64,000 nucleotides of DNA from Herpetosiphon sp. NSE202 (GTDB taxonomy: Bacteria; Chloroflexota; Chloroflexia; Chloroflexales; Herpetosiphonaceae), in contig NZ_JBHUPY010000007.1 of NCBI RefSeq assembly GCF_042688385.1, positions 2,110 through 66,109 of the forward strand, in the 5' to 3' direction. Made by a program: the position numbers and the translations under genes. Below the pieces are notes generated by a model. That model made no database searches, was not told the DNA's origin, and saw nothing but the letters and a program-made list of their open reading frames with translations. This document shows positions 41,367 through 55,164 of the stretch, in pieces. Within the stretch, counting starts at the first letter, position 1. Each line of letters opens with the position of its first letter.

Positions 41367-42251
41367 TTATTGTGCTACGACATCGCGACGTAAGCTAACC
41401 ATTTCATGAGATAAACGAAAGCCAACTTTTTCGTATAAACCGCGCGCCGTTGGATTATCTTGGTCAACAACTAATTCAAGTTCCTGAATCTCAGGTGCAC
41501 TAAAAATCCATTCCAAACAATGCTGCATAATCTTGGTGGCAATTCCACGGCCACGGGCAATCGGCGCAACACCAACAAATTCAATCCCTGCTTCGGCAAA
41601 TTCTGGTTGGCGCTCAGTATGAATATAGCCCAACAATTGTTCACCGTCACGCATAATAAATACTTGACGATCCTGATTAATTCGTTCGAGAATTTGGCTG
41701 CCGCTATAGTAAGTTTGGGGGAATAATTGATCATGCAATTCGCAGAAGGCTGCGTGTAATTCTGCTGGCAACGCTTCAACATCACTCTCGGTTGCATGAT
41801 CAGTTAATTGTGAACGTTTGTAGGCCAGAATTGCGTGGGTATTGCGCTGGTAAAATTGCTGACGCGCAGCCCAATCGCGTACAAATTGATTTTGCAAATT
41901 GCAAAACATATCAATCATGGTGACATGGGGCTTAAGTTCGGGCAATAATTCAGCCAGCAAGCGATCTGCAAGCTCAAAGCGCTCAGCGCCCAAGGCAATT
42001 GGCCCCCATAAGAAAGCACGGCCAGTATCCGAAATTTGCTCAAGGCCCATCAAGCCTTGCAATTGTTCATCGGCGCTAGCCAAAGCAAATTGCTGCTCAA
42101 TTGGGGCTTCTAGCTCACGCCATGTTTGGGCAATTTGGTCGGCTTGCGCGCCAGCAAAACCCAAGTGGGTGCTTGGTTCGCCCTGAAATTGGGCCATAAA
42201 CGCGGCTGCTTGGTCAATCTGGGCTGGTTGCATACGGCTAATCGTTGGCAT
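41367..42251 (-). CDS. GNAT-family N-acetyltransferase with an N-terminal extension
   Basis: GVAPIARGRGIATKIMQHCLEWIF...LYEKVGFR. Confidence 0.75.
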   Translation of the reverse strand: MPTISRMQPAQIDQAAAFMAQFQGEPSTHLGFAGAQADQIAQTWRELEAPIEQQFALASADEQLQGLMGLEQISDTGRAFLWGPIALGAERFELADRLLAELLPELKPHVTMIDMFCNLQNQFVRDWAARQQFYQRNTHAILAYKRSQLTDHATESDVEALPAELHAAFCELHDQLFPQTYYSGSQILERINQDRQVFIMRDGEQLLGYIHTERQPEFAEAGIEFVGVAPIARGRGIATKIMQHCLEWIFSAPEIQELELVVDQDNPTARGLYEKVGFRLSHEMVSLRRDVVAQ

Positions 42252-44823: not shown

Positions 44824-45900
44824 TTATCGCTCGCGGAGATAGAGCGCGATATCAGTGCCTTGATTATTGCGCGGATCGATATAGGCCTTAGGAATAAACC
44901 CAACTCGCTCGAAACCTGCTTGCTCATAGGCCGCAGGCAACGCCGGATGATCAAGCGGCACATGCCCGATCAACTGGTTGGCAAAATGGTTGGCTGGTAA
45001 TTGGCGCAGCATTTCATTCAACAATATCGGTGCTTGCTCGATATGGCCTGCGGCCAAATAACAATCAACCAAAAGCTGATGTTGCTGGTAATAGGGGTTT
45101 GGCCATGGATAAACTGGTGGCATAATGCTGCCCCAGCCAACAATCGCCCCGCTAGCTGCGGTCAGGCCCGTTAATACCGCCACATCGCCCTCTTGCTGCT
45201 CGAAGGCTGGAAAGAAATCGTCGGCTCCAATGTTGGCATCACCAAGCATTTGCAAGCCGTAATGGCGCACAATCCGATTATCGGGCGCATTGAACAACGA
45301 TAATAACAATGGCACATCGGCCCGATCCGATGATCGCATAAAGACCGCGGTACTGGGCGCAAATAAATGCTTGAGGAAGTTTTCGGGCGAATCGCCATCG
45401 CTAATGCGCCATGCAATGCGATTGCCTGTGCGGCTACTTTCGCTCTCATTAATCGTCACAAAATGATACTGCTCATAAAACGACATGGCACTATCATTAT
45501 GTTCAGTGCTAATAATCAGCGCTTGGCCGCCACTTGCCTCAAAATCGTTAATCGCCAACTTCAACAACTTACTAGCCAAGCCCCGGCGACGATACGGCTC
45601 AGCTGTATAGACCCGATGAATCGAACCCAATTGTGGACAGAATTTTGAACGACACAGCAGCATAGCGCTCACAGGCCGTCCCTGCACTTGGGCCAAATAC
45701 CATACATCTTGGCTAAAGCGCAGCCCAACAAGGCGCAGGTGCATATCAAATGACCAACGCCATGCTACCGCCGGATCTTCACCCCATCGGTGATAAAGCT
45801 CCTCAAGCGGTTGGGCAAATTCAGAAGCAAGCGGTTGGATGCGCGAGAGGACTGCCTCAGTTCCTGCACCCAGAGCAATCCGCGCAACTTCTTCGTACAT
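44824..45900 (-). CDS. Tandem-GNAT acetyltransferase (two GNAT lobes)
   Basis: GGAGGG sits 8 nt before the ATG at 45900. VYTAEPYRRRGLASKLL is a motif A; a second lobe has MPPVYPWPN.. Confidence 0.65.
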   Translation of the reverse strand: MYEEVARIALGAGTEAVLSRIQPLASEFAQPLEELYHRWGEDPAVAWRWSFDMHLRLVGLRFSQDVWYLAQVQGRPVSAMLLCRSKFCPQLGSIHRVYTAEPYRRRGLASKLLKLAINDFEASGGQALIISTEHNDSAMSFYEQYHFVTINESESSRTGNRIAWRISDGDSPENFLKHLFAPSTAVFMRSSDRADVPLLLSLFNAPDNRIVRHYGLQMLGDANIGADDFFPAFEQQEGDVAVLTGLTAASGAIVGWGSIMPPVYPWPNPYYQQHQLLVDCYLAAGHIEQAPILLNEMLRQLPANHFANQLIGHVPLDHPALPAAYEQAGFERVGFIPKAYIDPRNNQGTDIALYLRER

Positions 45901-46011
45901 CAGCGACCCTCCAAGCTCGATAGCTCGTCTGTTGGTCGCATCATACTCTAGGCCTCGCTGCTTGTCCACTACAGCCGATAGCGCAGAGATTGCGACGACC
46001 CATGTCCGATC

Positions 46012-46458: not shown

Positions 46459-48408
46459 TTGGAGGTATTAGTGGTTCATCGTTTGCTTCGTTGTAGCCTG
46501 CTCCTTGCGTTTGTCGTTGGAGCTATCGCCAGCCATCGCGCCACTCCGCTGGCCGCCCAAAGCCCACAGTCTAGCCCCAGCCAATTGGCAATTACTGGCC
46601 AAATTGGCGGCGACAGCTCGACCATGGTCGTTGCCGCCAACGCAGCCTATGTTGGCATCGGCCCCCGAATCGCCACCTATGATCTTAGCAACCCCGATCA
46701 GCCAAGCCTCTACAACCAAAGCGACATCTTACCAGCCACGGTGCAAGATTTAGCGCTTGGCGATGGATATTTGTACGCTGCCTTGGGCTATGGCCGCGAG
46801 CATGGCTTAGCAACCTTTTCATTAGCCACGCCGCTCACCCCAACCTTGGTCAGCTTTTATCAACTCGAATTATCGGCCATGACAGTTTTCAGCTATCAAA
46901 ATTATGTCTATGTGCAAGTTGATGATGGCTTGAAGGTATTTGACCTGACGAATCCGCGTCAACCACAGCTGGTCAATCAACTCAACCAGTATGGGATTGC
47001 CAACGTCACGATTCAAGGCAATCAGGCATTTTTGAACATTCAATCGTGGCTTGCTGGTTTCGATAGCCTCGATATTCTCGATTTGAGCGAGCCAATGACC
47101 CCAACGCTCAAAAGTTCAACTACGCTGGGCGATATTTTAGATATTGAAATTACCAATGATTTTGCGTATGTCAATACCCAACTAGGCCTGCGGGTGGTTG
47201 ATATTCGCAATGCGAGCAACCCAAGCATCATCAACCAAACCGATGCTGTTGCTGGCATGCAACTCGCAGTAAGCGATAATACCCTCGCCATGATTGGGCT
47301 GGATTTTGCCTTACACACCTGGGACATCACCAATCCCATCACGCCGACCGAAATCGCCGCCAGTAGCGAAACGATTCTTGGCTGGCCAACCAACTTAATT
47401 GCCAAACAACAACGTGGCTATGTGCTGACCCGTTCAGGCCAGCTGAATGTGTTCGATTGGAGCAATCGCCAAGCGCCCACACGGCTTACCCACAGCGAAA
47501 CCCCTGGTTGTAAAGAAAATGTGGCCTTGCAAGTCGTCGGCGATTATGCCTATGTTGCCGATTGGGGGCGTGGTTTGTGTATCGTCGATTTGCGCAACCC
47601 CAACCAACCAACGGTCGTTGGGCGCTTCGACCTCACAACCGAGCGCAATGCAGTCAGCGATATTGCCGTCCAAGGCTCATTGGTCTATATGGTCGATTGG
47701 AGCCATGGCATTTATGTGATCGATGTCAGCGACCCGACCGCACCAATCCAAGTCAGCTTCTTTACAACTGCTGGCTTTCCGGCGGCAATTGCGGTCAACG
47801 GCCCAATGGTCTATGTTGGCGAGTCGATCAACGATCAAGGGGTTGGTGGCAGCGTACGAATTTTTGATCTGACGGATTTGGCTAATCCAGTTGAGCACAG
47901 CCAGTTTTACACCAGCAAGGTTGCTCAACTCGCGGTGGTTGATCAAACCCTGTATGTGGCAGATAACGAGGGCGGCTTGCGGATTCTCGATGTGCGCAAC
48001 CCAGACAATATTCAAATGCTCGGCCAATATGCCGATAATTGGTTTGCGATGGATGTGGCAATCCAGGATAACCTTGCCTTTGTAGCAACCACCGCAGGCC
48101 TCGAAATTGTCGATATTAGCGACTCAACAGCGCCAACCGCAGTTAGCCGCTTGGAAAGTAGCTTGGTTGATGGCGTTGTGGTTGCCGATGATCAGCTGTA
48201 TATTGGCGTAGATGGTGGCATTCAGCAAATCGATATTCGCCAGCCAAGCAACCCCCAAATTGTTGCCAATTTACTGCTCGCTCGCGATTCGTGGATTCTG
48301 CCAGCGTTGCATGACGAGGCGATTGTGGCGCTAAGCTATCATGGTGGTGGCATGTTTGTGATTCGTGAACAACATCAACTCTTTCTGCCCGTTGTAAGCA
48401 AAAACTAA
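46459..48408 (+). CDS. Secreted LVIVD-repeat beta-propeller protein
   Basis: N-terminal signal peptide. Repeated GL(C/R)I(V/L)D(L/V)xNPxxP motifs (GLCIVDLRNPNQP, GIYVIDVSDPTAP, GLRILDVRNPDN, GLEIVDISDSTAP) match the LVIVD repeat. The start is ATG 46459 or GTG 46471. Confidence 0.75.
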   Translation: MEVLVVHRLLRCSLLLAFVVGAIASHRATPLAAQSPQSSPSQLAITGQIGGDSSTMVVAANAAYVGIGPRIATYDLSNPDQPSLYNQSDILPATVQDLALGDGYLYAALGYGREHGLATFSLATPLTPTLVSFYQLELSAMTVFSYQNYVYVQVDDGLKVFDLTNPRQPQLVNQLNQYGIANVTIQGNQAFLNIQSWLAGFDSLDILDLSEPMTPTLKSSTTLGDILDIEITNDFAYVNTQLGLRVVDIRNASNPSIINQTDAVAGMQLAVSDNTLAMIGLDFALHTWDITNPITPTEIAASSETILGWPTNLIAKQQRGYVLTRSGQLNVFDWSNRQAPTRLTHSETPGCKENVALQVVGDYAYVADWGRGLCIVDLRNPNQPTVVGRFDLTTERNAVSDIAVQGSLVYMVDWSHGIYVIDVSDPTAPIQVSFFTTAGFPAAIAVNGPMVYVGESINDQGVGGSVRIFDLTDLANPVEHSQFYTSKVAQLAVVDQTLYVADNEGGLRILDVRNPDNIQMLGQYADNWFAMDVAIQDNLAFVATTAGLEIVDISDSTAPTAVSRLESSLVDGVVVADDQLYIGVDGGIQQIDIRQPSNPQIVANLLLARDSWILPALHDEAIVALSYHGGGMFVIREQHQLFLPVVSKN

Positions 48409-48425
48409 ATTAACCAGCGAATAAG

Positions 48426-48475
48426 CAACTGTTGGCGCACAATCTGCTAGAGATTGGGCCAACAGTTGCTGCTTT
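48426..48475 (+). terminator. Hairpin terminator after the LVIVD gene
   Basis: gcaactgttggc ...23-nt loop... gccaacagttgc followed by tgctttta. Confidence 0.45.
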
Positions 48476-48674
48476 TAAGCATTTAACAAAAAACTTGCGT
48501 ATTTTGCACGAAGCTATGTTATAATGGCCCAAAGGTGCCGTTAGGAGGCACTACCACTGTGAAGAACCTCGTCGCTTGATGCACGTATTATCGTTCGGAT
48601 GTCCGCTGTACTCCCGATCATTCAAGCATGCACTGACGACCCCAACAGTAAGAACCACGACCTGTGGAGTAATA

Positions 48675-50927
48675 ATGGAACGTTTACATAAGTTTTTGGC
48701 GCGGGCCGGCGTAGATTCACGTCGGGCTTGCGAAGATTTGATGTTGGCTGGACGCGTATCGGTTAATGGGCGCGTTCAACGCGAATTAGGAACCCAGATC
48801 GACCCCGATAAAGATGACATTCGAGTTGATGGCGAACGAATTACCCCGCCAACCGAGCTTCATTACGTCTTATTGAACAAGCCAAGCAGCGTCATGACCA
48901 CGCTCAGTGACCCTGAAGGCCGCCAAACAGTCGCCGATTTGGTTAAATCACACAATCGTTTGTTTCCCGTAGGTCGCCTCGATTACGATAGCGAAGGGCT
49001 ATTGTTGATGACCGATGATGGCGATCTGACCTTTCGTTTGACCCACCCATCGTTTGAAGTCGAAAAAGAATATCAGGCCTTGTTAAATCAGACTCCATCA
49101 GTCGAGCAGTTGCGCGAGTGGCGCAATGGGGTTGAGCTTGACGATGGCAAAACCGCACCCGCTTGGATCGAAATGTTGAATGAAACACCCGATGGGACAT
49201 GGGTTCGGGTGGTTATTCACGAAGGCCGGAACCGCCAAATTCGCCGCGTGGCCGAAGCCCTTGGCCTCGAAGTCCGCCGCTTGATTCGCTTGCGCGAAGG
49301 CCCGCTCAGTTTAGGCGAATTAAAACCAGGTGAATGGCGTGCATTAACGCCAACCGAAATCGACCGCTTGCGCATGCACGGCAAGCAAAGCAAAGCTTGG
49401 ACTCCTGTCCGCCCACAAGAGAACGCCGAGGGTGGCAAACAGCGCCGCCAAGTGCGCCGCATTGATCGGTCTGGACAGTTGGTAGAACGTCGGGCTGATG
49501 TTGAACCGCGCTTACAACGAGCGCCTCACTTTACTTCACAGGAAAATACAATGTCATTTGAAGATTTCTCAATCGAAGAAGAACGCGCTAACGCCGATCG
49601 CCCAAGCCGTCGCCCAGAACCTCGCCGCGAAGGTGGATTTAGCGACCGTGGCCCCCGCCGTGATGGTGGCAGCCCCAGCGACCGTGGCCCCCGCCGTGAT
49701 TTTGGTGAGCGTGGCCCCCGCCGCGAAGGTGGATTTGGTGAGCGTGGCCCTCGCCGCGAAGGTGGCGATTTCGGTGACCGTGGCCCACGCCGCGAAGGTG
49801 GATTTAGCGAACGCGGCCCGCGTCGTGAAGGCGGTTTTGGCGAGCGCGGCCCACGTCGTGAAGGTGGCGGTTTTGGCGAACGTGGTCCACGCCGCGAAGG
49901 TGGCGATTTCGGTGACCGTGGCCCCCGCCGCGAAGGTGGCGGTTTTGGCGAACGTGGTCCACGCCGCGAAGGCGGCTTTGGCGAACGCGGTCCTCGCCGT
50001 GAAGGCGGCGATTTTGGCGAACGCGGCCTGCGCCGTGAAGGTGGATTTAGTGACCGTGGCCCTCGTCGCGAAGGTGGCGATTTCGGCGAACGCGGTCCTC
50101 GTCGCGATTTTGGTGACCGTGGCCCGCGCCGTGAAGGCGGCTTTGGCGAACGCGGCCCGCGCCGCGAAGGTGGCGATTTCGGTGACCGTGGCCCGCGCCG
50201 TGAAGGCGGCTTTGGCGAACGCGGTCCTCGTCGTGAAGGCGGCGGTTTTGGCGAACGCGGTCCTCGTCGTGAAGGCGGCGGTTTTGGCGAACGCGGTCCT
50301 CGTCGTGAAGGCGGCTTTGGCAAACGCGGCCCGCGCCGTGAAGGTGGCGGCTTTGGTGACCGTGGCCCGCGCCGTGAAGGTGGCGGCTTTGGTGACCGTG
50401 GCCCGCGCCGTGAAGGCGGCGGTTTTGGCGAACGCGGCCCGCGCCGTGAAGGCGGCGGCTTTGGTGACCGTGGCCCACGTCGCGATGCAAGTGGCTTCGA
50501 TCGCACCAATCGGCGCGAAGAATTTTTCGATGATCGACCCCGTGGCGAGCGCGGCTTAGCCCTTGATCGGGCGCATCGTGGCGATGATCGGCCTAAAAAT
50601 ACCTTTGGTGGTGGCCGACGCTCAAATAATCAAGGCTCGTTTGAACGCCGTGGCTTTGACAATCGTGGCCGCGATGATCGCCGTGGCTTTGATAACCGTG
50701 GCCGTGACGACCGCCGTGGCTTTGATGATCGCTCAGCTCCACGCCGCGATCAAGCTCCACGCCGTGATCAAGCCCCACGCGAAAATATCGCTGATCGTGG
50801 GCCAATTACTGCGCGGAATAACCCAGCACCTACGCCAGCGCCAAGCACTGAACAATCGGCTCAACCAGCACGTCGCATGCGCGTCGTTCGGCGTTTGAAA
50901 AAGGCAGGCGGTGATGAACAAGCTTAA
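48675..50927 (+). CDS. rluB: RluB-like pseudouridine synthase (S4 plus RsuA catalytic domain) with a repetitive Arg/Gly-rich C-terminal tail of about 470 aa
   Basis: GGAG sits 5 nt before the ATG at 48675. The S4 domain begins [23 protein letters not shown]. The catalytic region has [21 protein letters not shown] and the conserved Asp. After about residue 280 there are roughly 35 copies of (G)[12 protein letters not shown]. Confidence 0.85.
49600..50500 (+). repeat. Intragenic tandem repeat of 39/42 nt (cgtggcccccgccgcgaaggtggatttggtgag...) encoding ([12 protein letters not shown])n
   Basis: All three frames and the antisense are open across this region (spurious ORFs 49498..50559 and 49526..50509), which is diagnostic of short-period in-frame repeats. 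Confidence 0.85.
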
Positions 50928-51171
50928 ACAGGCCTTTCTCCAATTAGCAGTTGAACGCGATCGCACGCGGCGGCAAGCGCAACGCTACGCCGCTGAATCG
51001 CAACGTTGGCTTGAACGAATTGCGCTCGCAAAACGCTATGATGAGCCAGAATTGGCCCGTCAAGCTCGCGAACGCGCATTGCAAACCGCCCAAGCCGAAA
51101 TTCAACTGCGAACTGAATTAGCACGCCAAGACGTGCTCTTCGATCAATTGGCAGCGAGTCTCCAAGCTTAA
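50914..51171 (+). CDS. Small coiled-coil protein with a PspA/IM30-like motif
   Basis: [26 protein letters not shown] resembles the PspA central helix (W..KAE.AL.KG.EDLAR.AL). Its start overlaps the rluB stop. A strong terminator lies downstream. Confidence 0.45.
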
Positions 51172-51325: not shown

Positions 51326-52840
51326 TTGCTCTTTTTCGCTCTCGCGATGGCTGGCGGCAGTTTATGGCTGGTCAATCCTGAAGATTTCTGGTGGCATCTC
51401 AAAATTGGCGATCTCATTCGTGAAACAGGCACGATTCCCGAGGTTGGGCTTTTTTCTGCCACCCAAGCCAATACCCCATTTTTCTATCAAAGCTGGTTGG
51501 CTGAAGTTATTTTTTCGTGGACATATCAGCTTGGTGGATTAGTGGCAATTTTACAATTGCGCAATATGTTATTAATTGCAACCTACGGATTATTACTCTG
51601 GCATAGCCTCCGCCGAGCAAAAGGCAATGGTCGCGCTGCCATGCTTGGCCTCGTATTTATGGTAATCGTCGCATTCAATAATTGGAATGTTCGGCCACAA
51701 ATGTTTTCATGGCTGCTTTTTGCTGCAACCTTTGTGATTGTCAGCGAAGTTGCCACTGAACGCTGGTCGACTAAAGCCTTATGGCTGCTGCCAATCATTG
51801 AAGTAGCGTGGGTTAACCTACATGGCGCGTTTACGCTTGGGCCGATTCTGGTCGGCGCAGCAGCAGTTGGCGCAATCATCGATCGGCGGCGCGATCATCC
51901 TGAAGCGCCAATTTACGCGACAATGCGGGCACTCTGGCTGGCCTTTGCAGCAATGCTTGCAGCAACCCTGATCAATCCCCGGGGCTGGGGAGTTTTAGTC
52001 TATGTCGGGAAGCTGTTAACCGATCCATCGAGCCAAGAACTTATCAGCGAATGGGCTTCGCCTTTATCCACCCTGAGCAAACCCGTTTCGCAGTTTTTGC
52101 TTGCAGTAGTCTTTATTGCTGTGGTCATGATCGTGGTGGTTTGGAAAAAAATGCGCACTGCTGATCTCTTGATCATCGGCACAATGATTGGATTAACCTT
52201 GACTGGCATTCGCTATCAGCTGTGGTTTGGCATGGTCGCAGGCCCAATTATCGCCGAAGCCTTGGTCCAGCGCGGACGTTTGAAATTGATCAAGCGCAAT
52301 CCCCCCGCACCCAAAGCAATTGCCTGGTTAACGATCGCGCTGGCTGTCGTTGGCTTGCTGGTGCAGCCACTCATTCGGATTTGGTTGCCAATACCTGCTG
52401 CATTAAATGGCGCAAGCGGCGATTTGCCTTATGCCGAATTAGCCACCGCAGCAACGCCAATTCAAGCAGTAGCCTTTCTGCAAGCCAACCCACCAAGCCA
52501 AGCCTATTATCATGAAATGCGCTATAGCAGCTATTTGATCTGGCAGGCTGGCGAACAATTGCCAGTGTTTGTTGATACGCGGGTTGAGTTGTACCCAATT
52601 GCCCAATGGAATGAATATAAGTGCATTATGGCGGGCAATGATTGGGAACGCCTCTTAGCGAAATATACGATGAATACCATTATGGTTGATCGCGAAATCG
52701 GCAAAGATCTGGTTAGCGCCGTCCAAGCCAACCCCGCGTGGCAAGAGGTTTACGCCGATCAACAAACCTTGATTTACGAGCGCGATTCGCAAATTGCCCA
52801 ACCATCCAATCAGCCAGTTCTCTGTCCTGCAACCAATTAG
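51326..52840 (+). CDS. Polytopic membrane protein, putative GT-C-type glycosyl/arabinosyl-transferase-like; start uncertain
   Basis: More than 10 TM helices. The N-terminal motif NPEDFWWHLKIGDLI is typical of DUF2079/GT-C-like membrane proteins. The start is TTG 51326 or ATG 51347. Confidence 0.45.
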   Translation: MLFFALAMAGGSLWLVNPEDFWWHLKIGDLIRETGTIPEVGLFSATQANTPFFYQSWLAEVIFSWTYQLGGLVAILQLRNMLLIATYGLLLWHSLRRAKGNGRAAMLGLVFMVIVAFNNWNVRPQMFSWLLFAATFVIVSEVATERWSTKALWLLPIIEVAWVNLHGAFTLGPILVGAAAVGAIIDRRRDHPEAPIYATMRALWLAFAAMLAATLINPRGWGVLVYVGKLLTDPSSQELISEWASPLSTLSKPVSQFLLAVVFIAVVMIVVVWKKMRTADLLIIGTMIGLTLTGIRYQLWFGMVAGPIIAEALVQRGRLKLIKRNPPAPKAIAWLTIALAVVGLLVQPLIRIWLPIPAALNGASGDLPYAELATAATPIQAVAFLQANPPSQAYYHEMRYSSYLIWQAGEQLPVFVDTRVELYPIAQWNEYKCIMAGNDWERLLAKYTMNTIMVDREIGKDLVSAVQANPAWQEVYADQQTLIYERDSQIAQPSNQPVLCPATN

Positions 52841-53146: not shown

Positions 53147-53207
53147 CTGCATCTGCCTTGCTTGATTTCAACGAATAGAGGGCGATGCAGTTTTCTTTTT
53201 AGAATTG
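53147..53207 (+). terminator. Hairpin terminator
   Basis: aaaactgcatc ...loop... gatgcagtttt followed by cttttt. Confidence 0.45.
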
Positions 53208-53215
53208 GGTGGCTT

Positions 53216-53770
53216 ATGCTAGGACAATCGGTCGAGCGCAGTTTGTTGGTTATTGATGAAACTGATCAGCAGCTGGATTTACTGCAACGCTATCAGAACC
53301 GTTCAATGTTGTTAATGCTGATGCGCCATCTTGGCTGTGGCCTCTGCCGCCAACAGCTCTATCGCTTGCGCGACTATCAACAGCGCTTTGCAAATGCCGA
53401 TTGCGAAATTGCAATCATTACGATGGGCGATGCAGCCATGGCCAAGGGCTTTCGTCAGCTCAACCAGCTGCCATTTGCCGTCTATTCCGACCCCAAGCAA
53501 CAGGTCTACGAAGCCTTTGAAATTGGCCAAGGTTCGCTCTGGACGGTCGCAGGGCCACATGTTTTAGCCCGCCAAATGCTGCTAGCCTTCAAAGGCATTC
53601 CTTCATCGGTCAACCTTGCTGCCGAATCAATTCGCCGCCTTGGCGGAATCGTGTTGCTCAATCCGCAAGCAGAAATTGCCTTTCACCATGTTGCCAACCC
53701 AATTCATCGCTACCCGCCTTGGGAAGACATTTTGCACCTACTGGAACAGCCTCAACAACGAGCTGCTTAA
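53216..53770 (+). CDS. Thioredoxin-fold peroxiredoxin-like protein (AhpC/TSA_2-like), paralog 1
   Basis: MLLMLMRHLGCGLCRQQL has a CxxC motif. The downstream gene is a paralog (HHVANPIHRYPPWEDIL versus HHVANPIYRYPEWSSVL). Confidence 0.65.
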   Translation: MLGQSVERSLLVIDETDQQLDLLQRYQNRSMLLMLMRHLGCGLCRQQLYRLRDYQQRFANADCEIAIITMGDAAMAKGFRQLNQLPFAVYSDPKQQVYEAFEIGQGSLWTVAGPHVLARQMLLAFKGIPSSVNLAAESIRRLGGIVLLNPQAEIAFHHVANPIHRYPPWEDILHLLEQPQQRAA

Positions 53771-53842
53771 GCTGAATACATCCTTTTAGCGCTTGCTACA
53801 CGTAGGGTTAGATAGTGAATAGTGGAGCGCTAGGATACGATT

Positions 53843-54385
53843 ATGACAGCAGTAGCAACAACATCGATGGTCGATTTATGGATTTTAAATGAAGCAGGCG
53901 AACGAGTAGAATTTGAACAACTCTGGCAAGAAAAGCCGGTTTTGGTCTTTTTTATGCGCAATATTGGCTGTGGCATTTGCCGCCAAACGCTCTTGAAGCT
54001 GCGCGATCATGCTGCTGACTTCGAAAAGGCTGGGTGGCAAGTTGCGGTGCTGATGATGGGCAACGCCGAATTAGTGTCGCGATTCCGTTCGATGTATAAC
54101 ATTCCCTTCCCAATTTATATCGACCAAAGTTTGCAAGTGTACGATTATTTCGATATTGGCGAAGGTTCGTGGTTTGAAGTGCTCTCGCCACAAGTGTTGA
54201 TTCGCCAAGCGCGGCTGTTGGTTGGTGGCATGGAGTTGTTGAATGGCTCTGGCTCAATGCGCCGACTTGGGGGCACGGTCGCGATCAATCGGGCAGGCGA
54301 AGTTGTCTATCACCATGTCGCCAACCCAATTTATCGCTACCCAGAATGGTCAAGTGTCTTGCAGGCTTTGCCAAAGGCTAGCTAA
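53843..54385 (+). CDS. Thioredoxin-fold peroxiredoxin-like protein, paralog 2
   Basis: VLVFFMRNIGCGICRQTL has a CxxC motif. The C-terminus is near-identical to paralog 1. Confidence 0.65.
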   Translation: MTAVATTSMVDLWILNEAGERVEFEQLWQEKPVLVFFMRNIGCGICRQTLLKLRDHAADFEKAGWQVAVLMMGNAELVSRFRSMYNIPFPIYIDQSLQVYDYFDIGEGSWFEVLSPQVLIRQARLLVGGMELLNGSGSMRRLGGTVAINRAGEVVYHHVANPIYRYPEWSSVLQALPKAS

Positions 54386-55164
54386 AGCCAAACCAAGCCA
54401 TAGCTAATTAAGCCAGGTTGTTGCTGCAAACCAAGCTTTTGGGCCAGCCGATATGAAGCAAGATTTTTGCTTGAACATTCCCAATGGGCTTGCAGCCCAC
54501 GCCCGCGGCAGGCAGCAAGCATAGCGCTTGCCAAATGAAACCCTAAGCCTTGTTTTTGATAGGCTTCCAAGGTTTCGATGCCTAAGCCGCAGCGTTGCGC
54601 GCTTAGATATTCGGCGGTGCACCAGGCAACAATTGTTTGTTCAACACAGATTGCCAAACCCAAACCATTGGCTAAAAATCGCTCAAGGCTCGGCCACATC
54701 CAGCTAATTTCTTGGATAATTGGCTGAGCACTTGGCAGTTGCAAGAGTTCAGCATCAAGCTGGCGCAGTGCAAATTGGCTGGCCAATGGACTATTGACTA
54801 GGGTTTGCTCTTGATCGCGAAAGAAATAGCTGTTGCTTGGCTGGGCTTGGTAGGGGCTAAGCAAATCACTCAATTCTAGTTGGCTATTGCGCAGCAACCG
54901 CAGCTTAATCACATGGCGCGCTGGCATAGCGGGAACGACTGTTTGCAACCAGTGTTGGTTGAATTCAGCTTGATTGAGCGCACGCTCGCCCGCCAAATAC
55001 AGCACATTGTTAGCTTGATCCCAACAACTGCTCCAGGTTGCAGCGTGCCAGTAGCAGCCTTGCGAATTGCCAGCAGCCAGCGCGGCATAGACCAAGCCAA
55101 ATTGGGGATCAGGCGGAAAACGACGATCGTTGGCAAGTTCGGCTAAGGGTCGTTGTTCAATCAT
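54382..55164 (-). CDS. GNAT-family acetyltransferase
   Basis: The C-terminal lobe QKQGLGFHLASAML...LAQKLGL matches GNAT motif A/B. Confidence 0.65.
   Translation of the reverse strand: MIEQRPLAELANDRRFPPDPQFGLVYAALAAGNSQGCYWHAATWSSCWDQANNVLYLAGERALNQAEFNQHWLQTVVPAMPARHVIKLRLLRNSQLELSDLLSPYQAQPSNSYFFRDQEQTLVNSPLASQFALRQLDAELLQLPSAQPIIQEISWMWPSLERFLANGLGLAICVEQTIVAWCTAEYLSAQRCGLGIETLEAYQKQGLGFHLASAMLAACRGRGLQAHWECSSKNLASYRLAQKLGLQQQPGLISYGLVWL

Follow-up and report, generated by a model that had tools for sequence, protein, structure and literature searches.

We analyzed a stretch of 64,000 nucleotides (nt) from Herpetosiphon sp. NSE202 (NCBI RefSeq assembly GCF_042688385.1, contig NZ_JBHUPY010000007.1, positions 2,110 to 66,109 of the forward strand), here called the window, and in particular an rluB-type gene located at positions 48675..50927 on its plus strand. 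Sequence comparisons identify the product as an RsuA/RluB-family pseudouridine synthase with an intact S4 and catalytic module. Behind this module follow 510 amino acids (aa) of non-catalytic sequence, two thirds of the protein. A previous sequence-only reading had described a 750-aa RluB-type synthase of the RsuA family with a long repetitive C-terminal tail rich in arginine and glycine, and the searches against Pfam, the TIGR00093 model and the Protein Data Bank (PDB) as well as Tandem Repeats Finder (TRF) confirmed this description. The gene forms one uninterrupted open reading frame (ORF) of 750 codons plus stop, which begins with ATG at 48675, 6 nt behind a GGAG motif, and ends with TAA at 50925-50927. 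A longer N-terminus starting at TTG 48576 or ATG 48579 was rejected, because a 1-nt indel breaks the frame in two species and because all orthologs and homologs begin, like the 750-aa protein, with MERLHKF.

The folded enzyme part comprises aa 1-240 (48675..49394, plus strand). Pfam placed the S4 domain (PF01479) at aa 2-44 with 37.5 bits (cutoff 22.8) and PseudoU_synth_2 (PF00849) at aa 63-194 with 82.8 bits (cutoff 26.8), and the NCBIfam subfamily model TIGR00093 was passed with 173.3 bits (cutoff 109.3). The best solved relative was E. coli RluB (PDB entries 4LAB, 4LGT and 9CL9; 143 bits, alignment over aa 2-232); RluF, which scored 120 bits, RluE and RsuA all ranked below it. Asp103 in the GRLD motif aligns with the catalytic residue D110 of E. 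coli RluB and Tyr133 with Y140 (PMC3919597), and both residues were invariant in the 34 homologs aligned. These similarities suggest that the protein is a distant ortholog of RluB, a name which we use provisionally. The target of E. coli RluB is U2605 of the 23S rRNA in helix 93, close to the peptidyl-transferase centre. In an AlphaFold2 (AF2) model of the protein, calculated with a 34-sequence alignment, the predicted local distance difference test score (pLDDT) was 80-96 for aa 1-240 and fell from above 80 to below 50 at residue 241. The fold thus ends at about residue 240, and not near residue 280 as first described, in line with the end of the RluB alignment at residue 232.

The tail begins with a non-repetitive linker of 72 aa (aa 241-312, 49395..49610), continues with the repeat array (aa 313-611, 49611..50507) and closes with a post-array segment of 139 aa (aa 612-750, 50508..50924), all on the plus strand. 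Unit parsing, TRF and the codon table delimited an array of about 299 aa, in which 25 units anchored on RG[PL]RR occupy aa 325-611; 26 units result if a degenerate first unit, RPEPRRE, is counted. The unit reads RGPRR(E/D)GG(G/D)F(G/S)(E/D) and is 9, 11 or 12 aa long, corresponding to 27, 33 or 36 nt. TRF reported a period of 36 with 22.6 copies at 49698-50476 (score 655, 78% matches). These values replace the roughly 35 units of 39 or 42 nt and the repeat tail of about 470 aa that had been proposed from the sequence alone. No Pfam or NCBIfam model matched the array. The arginine- and aspartate-rich segment noted previously behind the array was found again; it contains an 11-aa unit (33 nt, 2.5 copies at 50646-50726) and the unit APRRDQ (18 nt, 2.6 copies at 50735-50780), both detected by TRF, and its C-terminal end consists of a basic stretch followed by an acidic one. 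Just before the array, an internal in-frame ATG (Met293 of RluB, 49551-49553) is preceded by AGGAAAA (49540-49546), and it is conceivable that a tail-only product is translated separately from this codon.

With respect to composition, the array contains 34% glycine, 26% arginine, 19% glutamate plus aspartate, 9% proline and 8% phenylalanine. The 510-aa tail as a whole has a net charge of +38, a fraction of charged residues of 0.46 and a charge-patterning parameter kappa of about 0.10, a value that denotes good mixing. It is therefore a well-mixed polyampholyte with a core of some 25 repetitions of (G)GFG(E/D)RGPRR(E/D)G. In the AF2 model, aa 241-750 had pLDDT values below 50 and zero secondary structure, and the charge-hydropathy plot likewise placed the tail in the disordered range, so that residues 241-750 are predicted to be fully disordered. 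The sequence-only reading had also likened the tail to RGG/RG-rich tails. We counted 34 RG, 22 FG and 14 GFG, but the tripeptide RGG does not occur even once in the whole protein. Compared with glycine-arginine-rich (GAR) domains, the tail shares a disordered region rich in glycine and arginine with interspersed aromatic residues, whereas clustered RGG tripeptides are missing and the 19% of acidic residues are atypical. Strictly speaking, it does not qualify as an RGG tail.

The gene was compared in six genomes, namely those of the window, Herpetosiphon giganteus, Herpetosiphon geysericola, Herpetosiphon llansteffanensis, Herpetosiphon aurantiacus DSM 785 (finished genome, CP000875) and a metagenome-assembled genome (MAG) with a contig of 3.69 Mb. 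Each of the other five genomes contained one continuous ORF in which linker, array and post-array segment all recur. Measured between the landmarks RPEPRRE and DASGFDR, the array spans 291 aa in the window and 278-345 aa in the other species, and the six genes contain 25-29 PRR[DE] motifs each, which agrees with the copy-number variation expected in the sequence-only reading. The differences are modest, and they come from a comparison between species. The RluB protein of H. giganteus DSM 589, whose genome shows about 93.5% DNA identity to the window over the aligned region, has 767 aa in comparison to 750 aa, and the two arrays can be aligned from both ends at the cost of unit-scale indels. 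The window thus belongs to a strain or species closely related to, but different from, DSM 589, which is the GTDB representative of H. giganteus.

This comparison bears directly on the trivial explanation that the gene is an assembly artefact, with a collapsed or expanded repeat, or that a separate tail ORF was joined to the synthase by mistake. Short reads can indeed mis-assemble repeats. However, no exact DNA repeat in the gene is longer than 69 nt, the ORF is continuous in six assemblies that were produced with differing technologies, among them the finished genome of H. aurantiacus and the 3.69-Mb contig, and variation at third codon positions keeps to the RluB frame throughout. Because five other Herpetosiphon genomes carry the same fused gene, in which the tail is part of one gene product in every ortholog, we rejected this explanation and consider its remaining probability negligible. 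An artefactual repeat length and a separate tail gene were the two findings that the sequence-only reading had named as refuting it, and neither applies. The description of the locus is herewith corrected, and its repeat does not stem from faulty assembly.

The array had been called almost perfect. This holds true for the peptide but not for the DNA, since the units share on average 84% of their nucleotides and only two adjacent units, both of 36 nt at 50220-50291, are identical. The 21 canonical units vary almost solely at third codon positions; the array uses CGT and CGC for arginine, GGC and GGT for glycine and all four proline codons. In pairwise comparisons of these units, the proportion of synonymous differences (pS) was 0.49 and that of nonsynonymous differences (pN) 0.035, giving a ratio of 0.07. 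These values indicate that the repeat peptide is under purifying selection and that the units are old and not the product of fresh slippage. The location of the variation furthermore identifies the RluB frame as the selected frame, and two other ORFs over the array, one of 353 aa on the plus strand (49498..50559) and one of 327 aa on the minus strand (49526..50509), were therefore dismissed as by-products of the repeat. Their translations are low-complexity sequences rich in alanine and valine or of the PRSPKPP type. The proposal that the repeat is a likely hotspot for slippage was not supported either: synonymous sites are saturated, the unit lengths are all multiples of three, and the array can be aligned to that of a genome with about 93.5% identity. 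Judged by the mean unit identity, the longest exact repeat of 69 nt, the pS among units, the unit lengths and the modest copy-number differences between species, the array does not have the properties of a contingency repeat.

The non-repetitive parts of the tail are conserved as well. Compared with the MAG, the linker showed a pN of 0.011 and a pS of 0.224, the first 80 aa of the post-array segment a pN of 0.005 and a pS of 0.48, and the catalytic domain a pN of 0.013 and a pS of 0.30. Linker and post-array segment are thus constrained as strongly as the enzyme itself, with identities of 94-100% and 82-100%, respectively, within the genus. A functionless low-complexity expansion that arose through slippage during replication or through unequal recombination, and that the enzyme tolerates at its end, would fit the variation of the copy number among species, the pair of adjacent identical units and the poor conservation of RluB C-terminal tails between distant species (PMC3919597). 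It is opposed by the difference between pS and pN among the units, by the fact that all species examined have kept an array of 278-345 aa and by the persistence of long tails of similar composition across phyla, and we regard it as very improbable.

To place the tail within its enzyme family, 1.84 billion cluster representatives were searched with the catalytic domain alone, and the 150 nearest clusters at 50% identity were examined. In 86 of them, the synthase carries a C-terminal tail of at least 100 aa; tails of at least 200 aa were present in 58, of at least 300 aa in 27, of at least 400 aa in 13 and of at least 500 aa in 6 clusters. Nearly all of the 38 closest clusters have tails of 170-598 aa. 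On average, the tails of at least 100 aa contain 20% arginine, 14% glycine, 12% proline and 13% aspartate plus glutamate. Named carriers of similar tails are Roseiflexaceae, Anaerolineae, Myxococcus xanthus (731 aa), Corallococcus (859 aa), Terracidiphilus (826 aa), Opitutus and Akkermansia. Since such tails are common in the RluB family, the Herpetosiphon tail does not represent a new kind. Its length and regularity had been called extreme, which overstates the case. Among the 150 clusters and itself, the window array did rank first in regularity, by the number of copies of the commonest 5-mer (24, with 15 for the next), while arrays of 20-27 units also occur in other relatives and lineages. 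Large and of unusual regularity, the Herpetosiphon tail therefore stands at the upper end of a trait that is widespread in its family and is not an outlier. The tails of related genera are wholly different in sequence and have retained only the composition, and the lineage-specific unit sequences suggest either rapid turnover or independent origins. Two homologs differ in their architecture. In a protein of the actinomycete Streptosporangium (P0101), repeats rich in arginine, glycine and aspartate are located N-terminal and not C-terminal to the synthase, and a metagenomic homolog (P0051) contains the synthase fused to cytidylate kinase domains.

Used by itself as the query, the array region (aa 310-611) returned 118 proteins, of which 109 carry RNA-binding or RNA-enzyme domains according to a precomputed Pfam annotation. 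These proteins include pseudouridine synthases, SpoU/RlmB methyltransferases, Jag/KhpB, RRM proteins, ribosomal protein S3, the KH-S1 ends of PNPase, cold-shock-domain (CSD) proteins, the archaeal exosome protein Csl4 and DEAD-box/DbpA helicases. The unit (F/Y/W)G(D/E)RGPRR(E/D)GG recurs on these proteins, in many of them as a literal stretch of ten residues followed by (F/Y/W)G, and among the 108 newly returned matches (P0121-P0228), 63 have three or more RGPRR[DE] motifs. Due to this co-occurrence, the auxiliary RNA-binding or condensate-forming role that had been suggested for the tail appears to be a reasonable reading. We assign an RNA-linked role mainly because the unit travels with RNA proteins and resembles sequences of eIF3a, GAR domains and the DRYG region (see below), although low-complexity likenesses of this kind are no proof of homology.

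Based on these data, we consider it probable that the tail serves as a multivalent auxiliary tether of low specificity, by which the RluB-type enzyme would be held on RNA. The folded 240 residues would supply site specificity, and the arginine and phenylalanine residues of the tail would contact rRNA and in this way raise the local concentration and the dwell time of the enzyme on nascent 23S rRNA or pre-50S particles. In addition, the tail may act like a chaperone and aid RNA rearrangement. The binding of RNA by the tail, the target site in rRNA and an effect on activity or localisation are what we infer here. Precedents in the literature are the short disordered tail of E. coli RluB (PMC3919597) and two further reports: RluB has been found on stalled pre-50S particles (PMC11912913), and the tails of the Pseudomonas RhlE helicases account for most of the RNA affinity of these enzymes, with a 10- to 43-fold gain, and drive clustering or phase separation (PMC11260450).

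Several points weigh against the function as an RNA tether. The RluB equivalog model NF007976 scored 145.9 bits, which was the best of four equivalogs but below the cutoff of 290, so that the counterpart of U2605 is only a presumed target. Each unit contains two acidic residues, leaving a net charge of about +1 per unit, and because the charge is reduced in this way, a lower non-specific RNA affinity per residue than that of RGG/GAR sequences is to be expected. The near-invariant non-repetitive segments of the tail fit a site for a specific partner better than generic RNA stickiness. Finally, the only RluB tail that we found in a literature search on long RluB tails was that of E. coli with 40 aa.

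A further explanation takes the tail as the scaffold or client of a condensate, in which the FG/RG sequence associates with itself or co-condenses with rRNA and so gathers RluB, together with other enzymes that bear this unit, where rRNA is transcribed, in a zone resembling a nucleolus. The unit is indeed shared by several rRNA- and RNA-processing enzymes, the content of GFG and RG resembles that of self-interacting GAR domains with GF repeats (PMC12951762), the combination of aspartate, arginine, aromatic residues and glycine is reminiscent of the DRYG region of eIF4B, for which oligomerisation and phase separation are described (PMC11464913), and condensates are formed by the bacterial RhlE tails (PMC11260450). 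On the other hand, the well-mixed charges (kappa of about 0.10) and the aromatic content of only 8% argue against strong homotypic phase separation, and this explanation overlaps with an RNA tether without excluding it. Taken as the principal function of the tail, we regard condensate formation as rather unlikely. A related and still more speculative idea is that the unit might be a discrete prokaryotic counterpart of the eukaryotic GAR and DRYG sequences, which was recruited repeatedly or moved between genes onto rRNA-modifying enzymes (RluB, RlmB), RNases (PNPase, archaeal Csl4), helicases, Jag/KhpB, CSD and RRM proteins and ribosomal protein S3, and which would bring all of these to one common assembly zone rich in rRNA; in this doubtful case, the Herpetosiphon RluB protein with its 25 units would be the largest bacterial example.

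The strong conservation of the tail segments outside the array suggests another possible function, namely that of a docking platform, in which the linker, the post-array segment and the basic-acidic end bind a specific partner and the repeats serve chiefly as a spacer. Candidates for this partner are ribosomal proteins, assembly factors and the product of a small, translationally coupled gene directly downstream. In agreement with docking, pN/pS of the non-repetitive tail segments is about 0.01-0.05 within the genus, and the small ORF, which comes after rluB in more distant relatives as well, has its overlap with the rluB stop codon in six of six genomes. The strong purifying selection observed on the repeat peptide itself would not be necessary for a pure spacer, however, and the tails of related genera differ in sequence and keep only their composition. 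Partner docking as the main function therefore appears improbable to us. Neither docking nor condensate formation is mutually exclusive with RNA tethering, and both are live alternatives.

The small gene (50914..51171, plus strand) encodes a protein of 85 aa and overlaps the rluB stop codon, as the sequence-only reading had stated, by 14 nt from its ATG at 50914 or by 17 nt if translation starts at GTG 50911. The overlap is identical in the window and the five other Herpetosiphon genomes, and pN/pS of the ORF is 0.14-0.21. A word-indexed homolog search with the 85-aa protein returned genus-level relatives only; more distant homologs of 83-84 aa were recognized by their position directly after rluB in the relatives L051 (3511-3762 of that sequence) and L053 (3014-3268), whose RluB catalytic domains are 72-76% identical. 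The AF2 model of the protein (pLDDT 96.8) shows two helices, residues 3-41 and 45-84, that form a hairpin. All of the top 20 Foldseek matches in the PDB were Vipp1, PspA or the ESCRT-III protein CHMP1B, with template modeling (TM) scores of 0.82-0.91 normalized to the query (TMq) and identities of 17-28%. The foremost matches reached TMq values of 0.85-0.91 at 26-28% identity, the latter being the range of the entries for Vipp1 and for PspA of Synechocystis. The E-values of 7e-3 to 0.25 were marginal, and the targets are larger proteins of 133-219 aa, to which the TM scores (TMt) were 0.35-0.57. The only Pfam match was PF04012 (PspA_IM30), covering positions 39-123 of the 220 profile positions with 9.6 bits, which is below the threshold of 33.9 (E = 0.86). 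The predicted fold thus contains the alpha1-alpha2 helical hairpin of the PspA/IM30 family, but the protein consists of this hairpin only and lacks the membrane-binding helix alpha0 and the polymerising helices alpha3-alpha5 of the full PspA architecture. Consequently, the label PspA-like, which had been proposed before, appears reasonable at the level of the predicted fold, where the hairpins of Vipp1, PspA and ESCRT-III proteins are matched, and does not extend to the Pfam family.

Besides this hairpin-only PspA-like protein, the second better-defined feature flanking rluB is an almost invariant sequence upstream of the gene, the presumed 5' leader (48526..48674, plus strand), which directly follows TGTTATAAT at 48517-48525. 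Across the six genomes, only 3-4 columns of about 150 nt vary in the leader (alignment A2), compared to a pS of 0.3 at synonymous sites of rluB. It contains an AGGAGG motif (48543-48548), a mini-ORF of six codons beginning with GTG (48559-48579) and the hexamer GUUCGG, which is identical to nucleotides 2603-2608 of the E. coli 23S rRNA at the target site in helix 93. We rejected the idea that the leader mimics 23S rRNA helix 93, because GUUCGG is all that is shared and a blastn-short comparison with the E. coli rrn operon gave nothing significant. Rfam yielded zero matches at the gathering score in the whole window and, with E-values up to 10, a single chance-level match on the opposite strand. 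The minimum free energy (MFE) of the folded leader was -33.6 kcal/mol compared to a mean of -38.1 for shuffled sequences (z = +1.22), so that it is no stabler than expected by chance, and no counterpart was recognisable by eye in the more distant relatives L051-L053. Control of rluB expression through this genus-invariant leader is a possibility.

A scan for promoters and terminators between 48300 and 51500 found nothing exceeding the expectation from shuffled sequences. At 48425-48476, a 12-bp inverted repeat, GCAACTGTTGGC ... GCCAACAGTTGC, is followed by a run of T downstream of a gene for an LVIVD-repeat protein. In alignment A2, H. aurantiacus and the MAG show compensatory changes in the arms, in keeping with a real terminator. 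Its loop of 21 nt is the reason why the element escaped the pattern scan. The LVIVD protein is a beta-propeller protein and is encoded upstream of rluB; downstream lies a gene for a 504-aa protein, a multi-pass membrane protein as judged by eye, which gave no Pfam match. Three GNAT acetyltransferases and two tandem paralogs of the AhpC/TSA-type peroxiredoxins are encoded nearby (coordinates of the neighbours: 46459-48408, 51326-52840, 41367-42251, 44824-45969, 54382-55164 and 53162-54385). The neighbours are functionally unrelated, and rluB is not located in the context of a ribosome-biogenesis operon.

If the tail acts as an RNA tether, bacteria would use long disordered repeats of selected sequence on stand-alone rRNA-modifying enzymes in a similar manner as eukaryotes use GAR domains on proteins of small nucleolar ribonucleoproteins (snoRNPs). 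In that case, the contribution of such tails to ribosome biogenesis could be tested on the range of lengths, from 0 to about 600 aa, that nature offers in this family.

Among the closest known systems is E. coli RluB (PDB 4LAB, 4LGT, 9CL9), which has the same combination of an S4 and an RsuA-type catalytic domain with the catalytic aspartate and tyrosine residues. Its C-terminal tail is likewise disordered and basic and shows little conservation from species to species (PMC3919597). That tail comprises about 40 aa and is non-repetitive, whereas the 510-aa tail of the Herpetosiphon protein contains 25 regular units with interspersed acidic residues. The GAR domains of the snoRNP proteins GAR1 and fibrillarin are likewise disordered, rich in glycine and arginine with GF and GFG motifs, and attached to a machinery for pseudouridylation or methylation of rRNA; they bind RNA and interact with themselves (PMC12951762). 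GAR domains are, however, built from RGG/RG and almost free of acidic residues, in contrast to the fixed RGPRR core, the lack of RGG and the 19% aspartate plus glutamate in Herpetosiphon, and we found no evidence of common descent. Bacteria are generally not known to possess the arginine methylation that regulates GAR domains.

A literal match to the core D-R-G-P-R-R in tandem arrangement is present in the DDDRGPRRGx decapeptide repeats at the C-terminus of human eIF3a (PMC9957100), and the self-associating DRYG region of eIF4B has a similar composition of aspartate, arginine, aromatic residues and glycine (PMC11464913). Both proteins are eukaryotic initiation factors, and the length of their units and the flanking sequences differ from those in Herpetosiphon. 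The likeness concerns low-complexity sequence and is probably convergent. Within bacteria, RhlE1 and RhlE2 of Pseudomonas provide a parallel as RNA enzymes with disordered basic tails that confer RNA affinity and clustering (PMC11260450). They belong to another catalytic family, and their tails are shorter and have no regular array of 25 units, but some proteins of the DEAD-box/DbpA type bear the same GDRGPRR unit as the Herpetosiphon tail.

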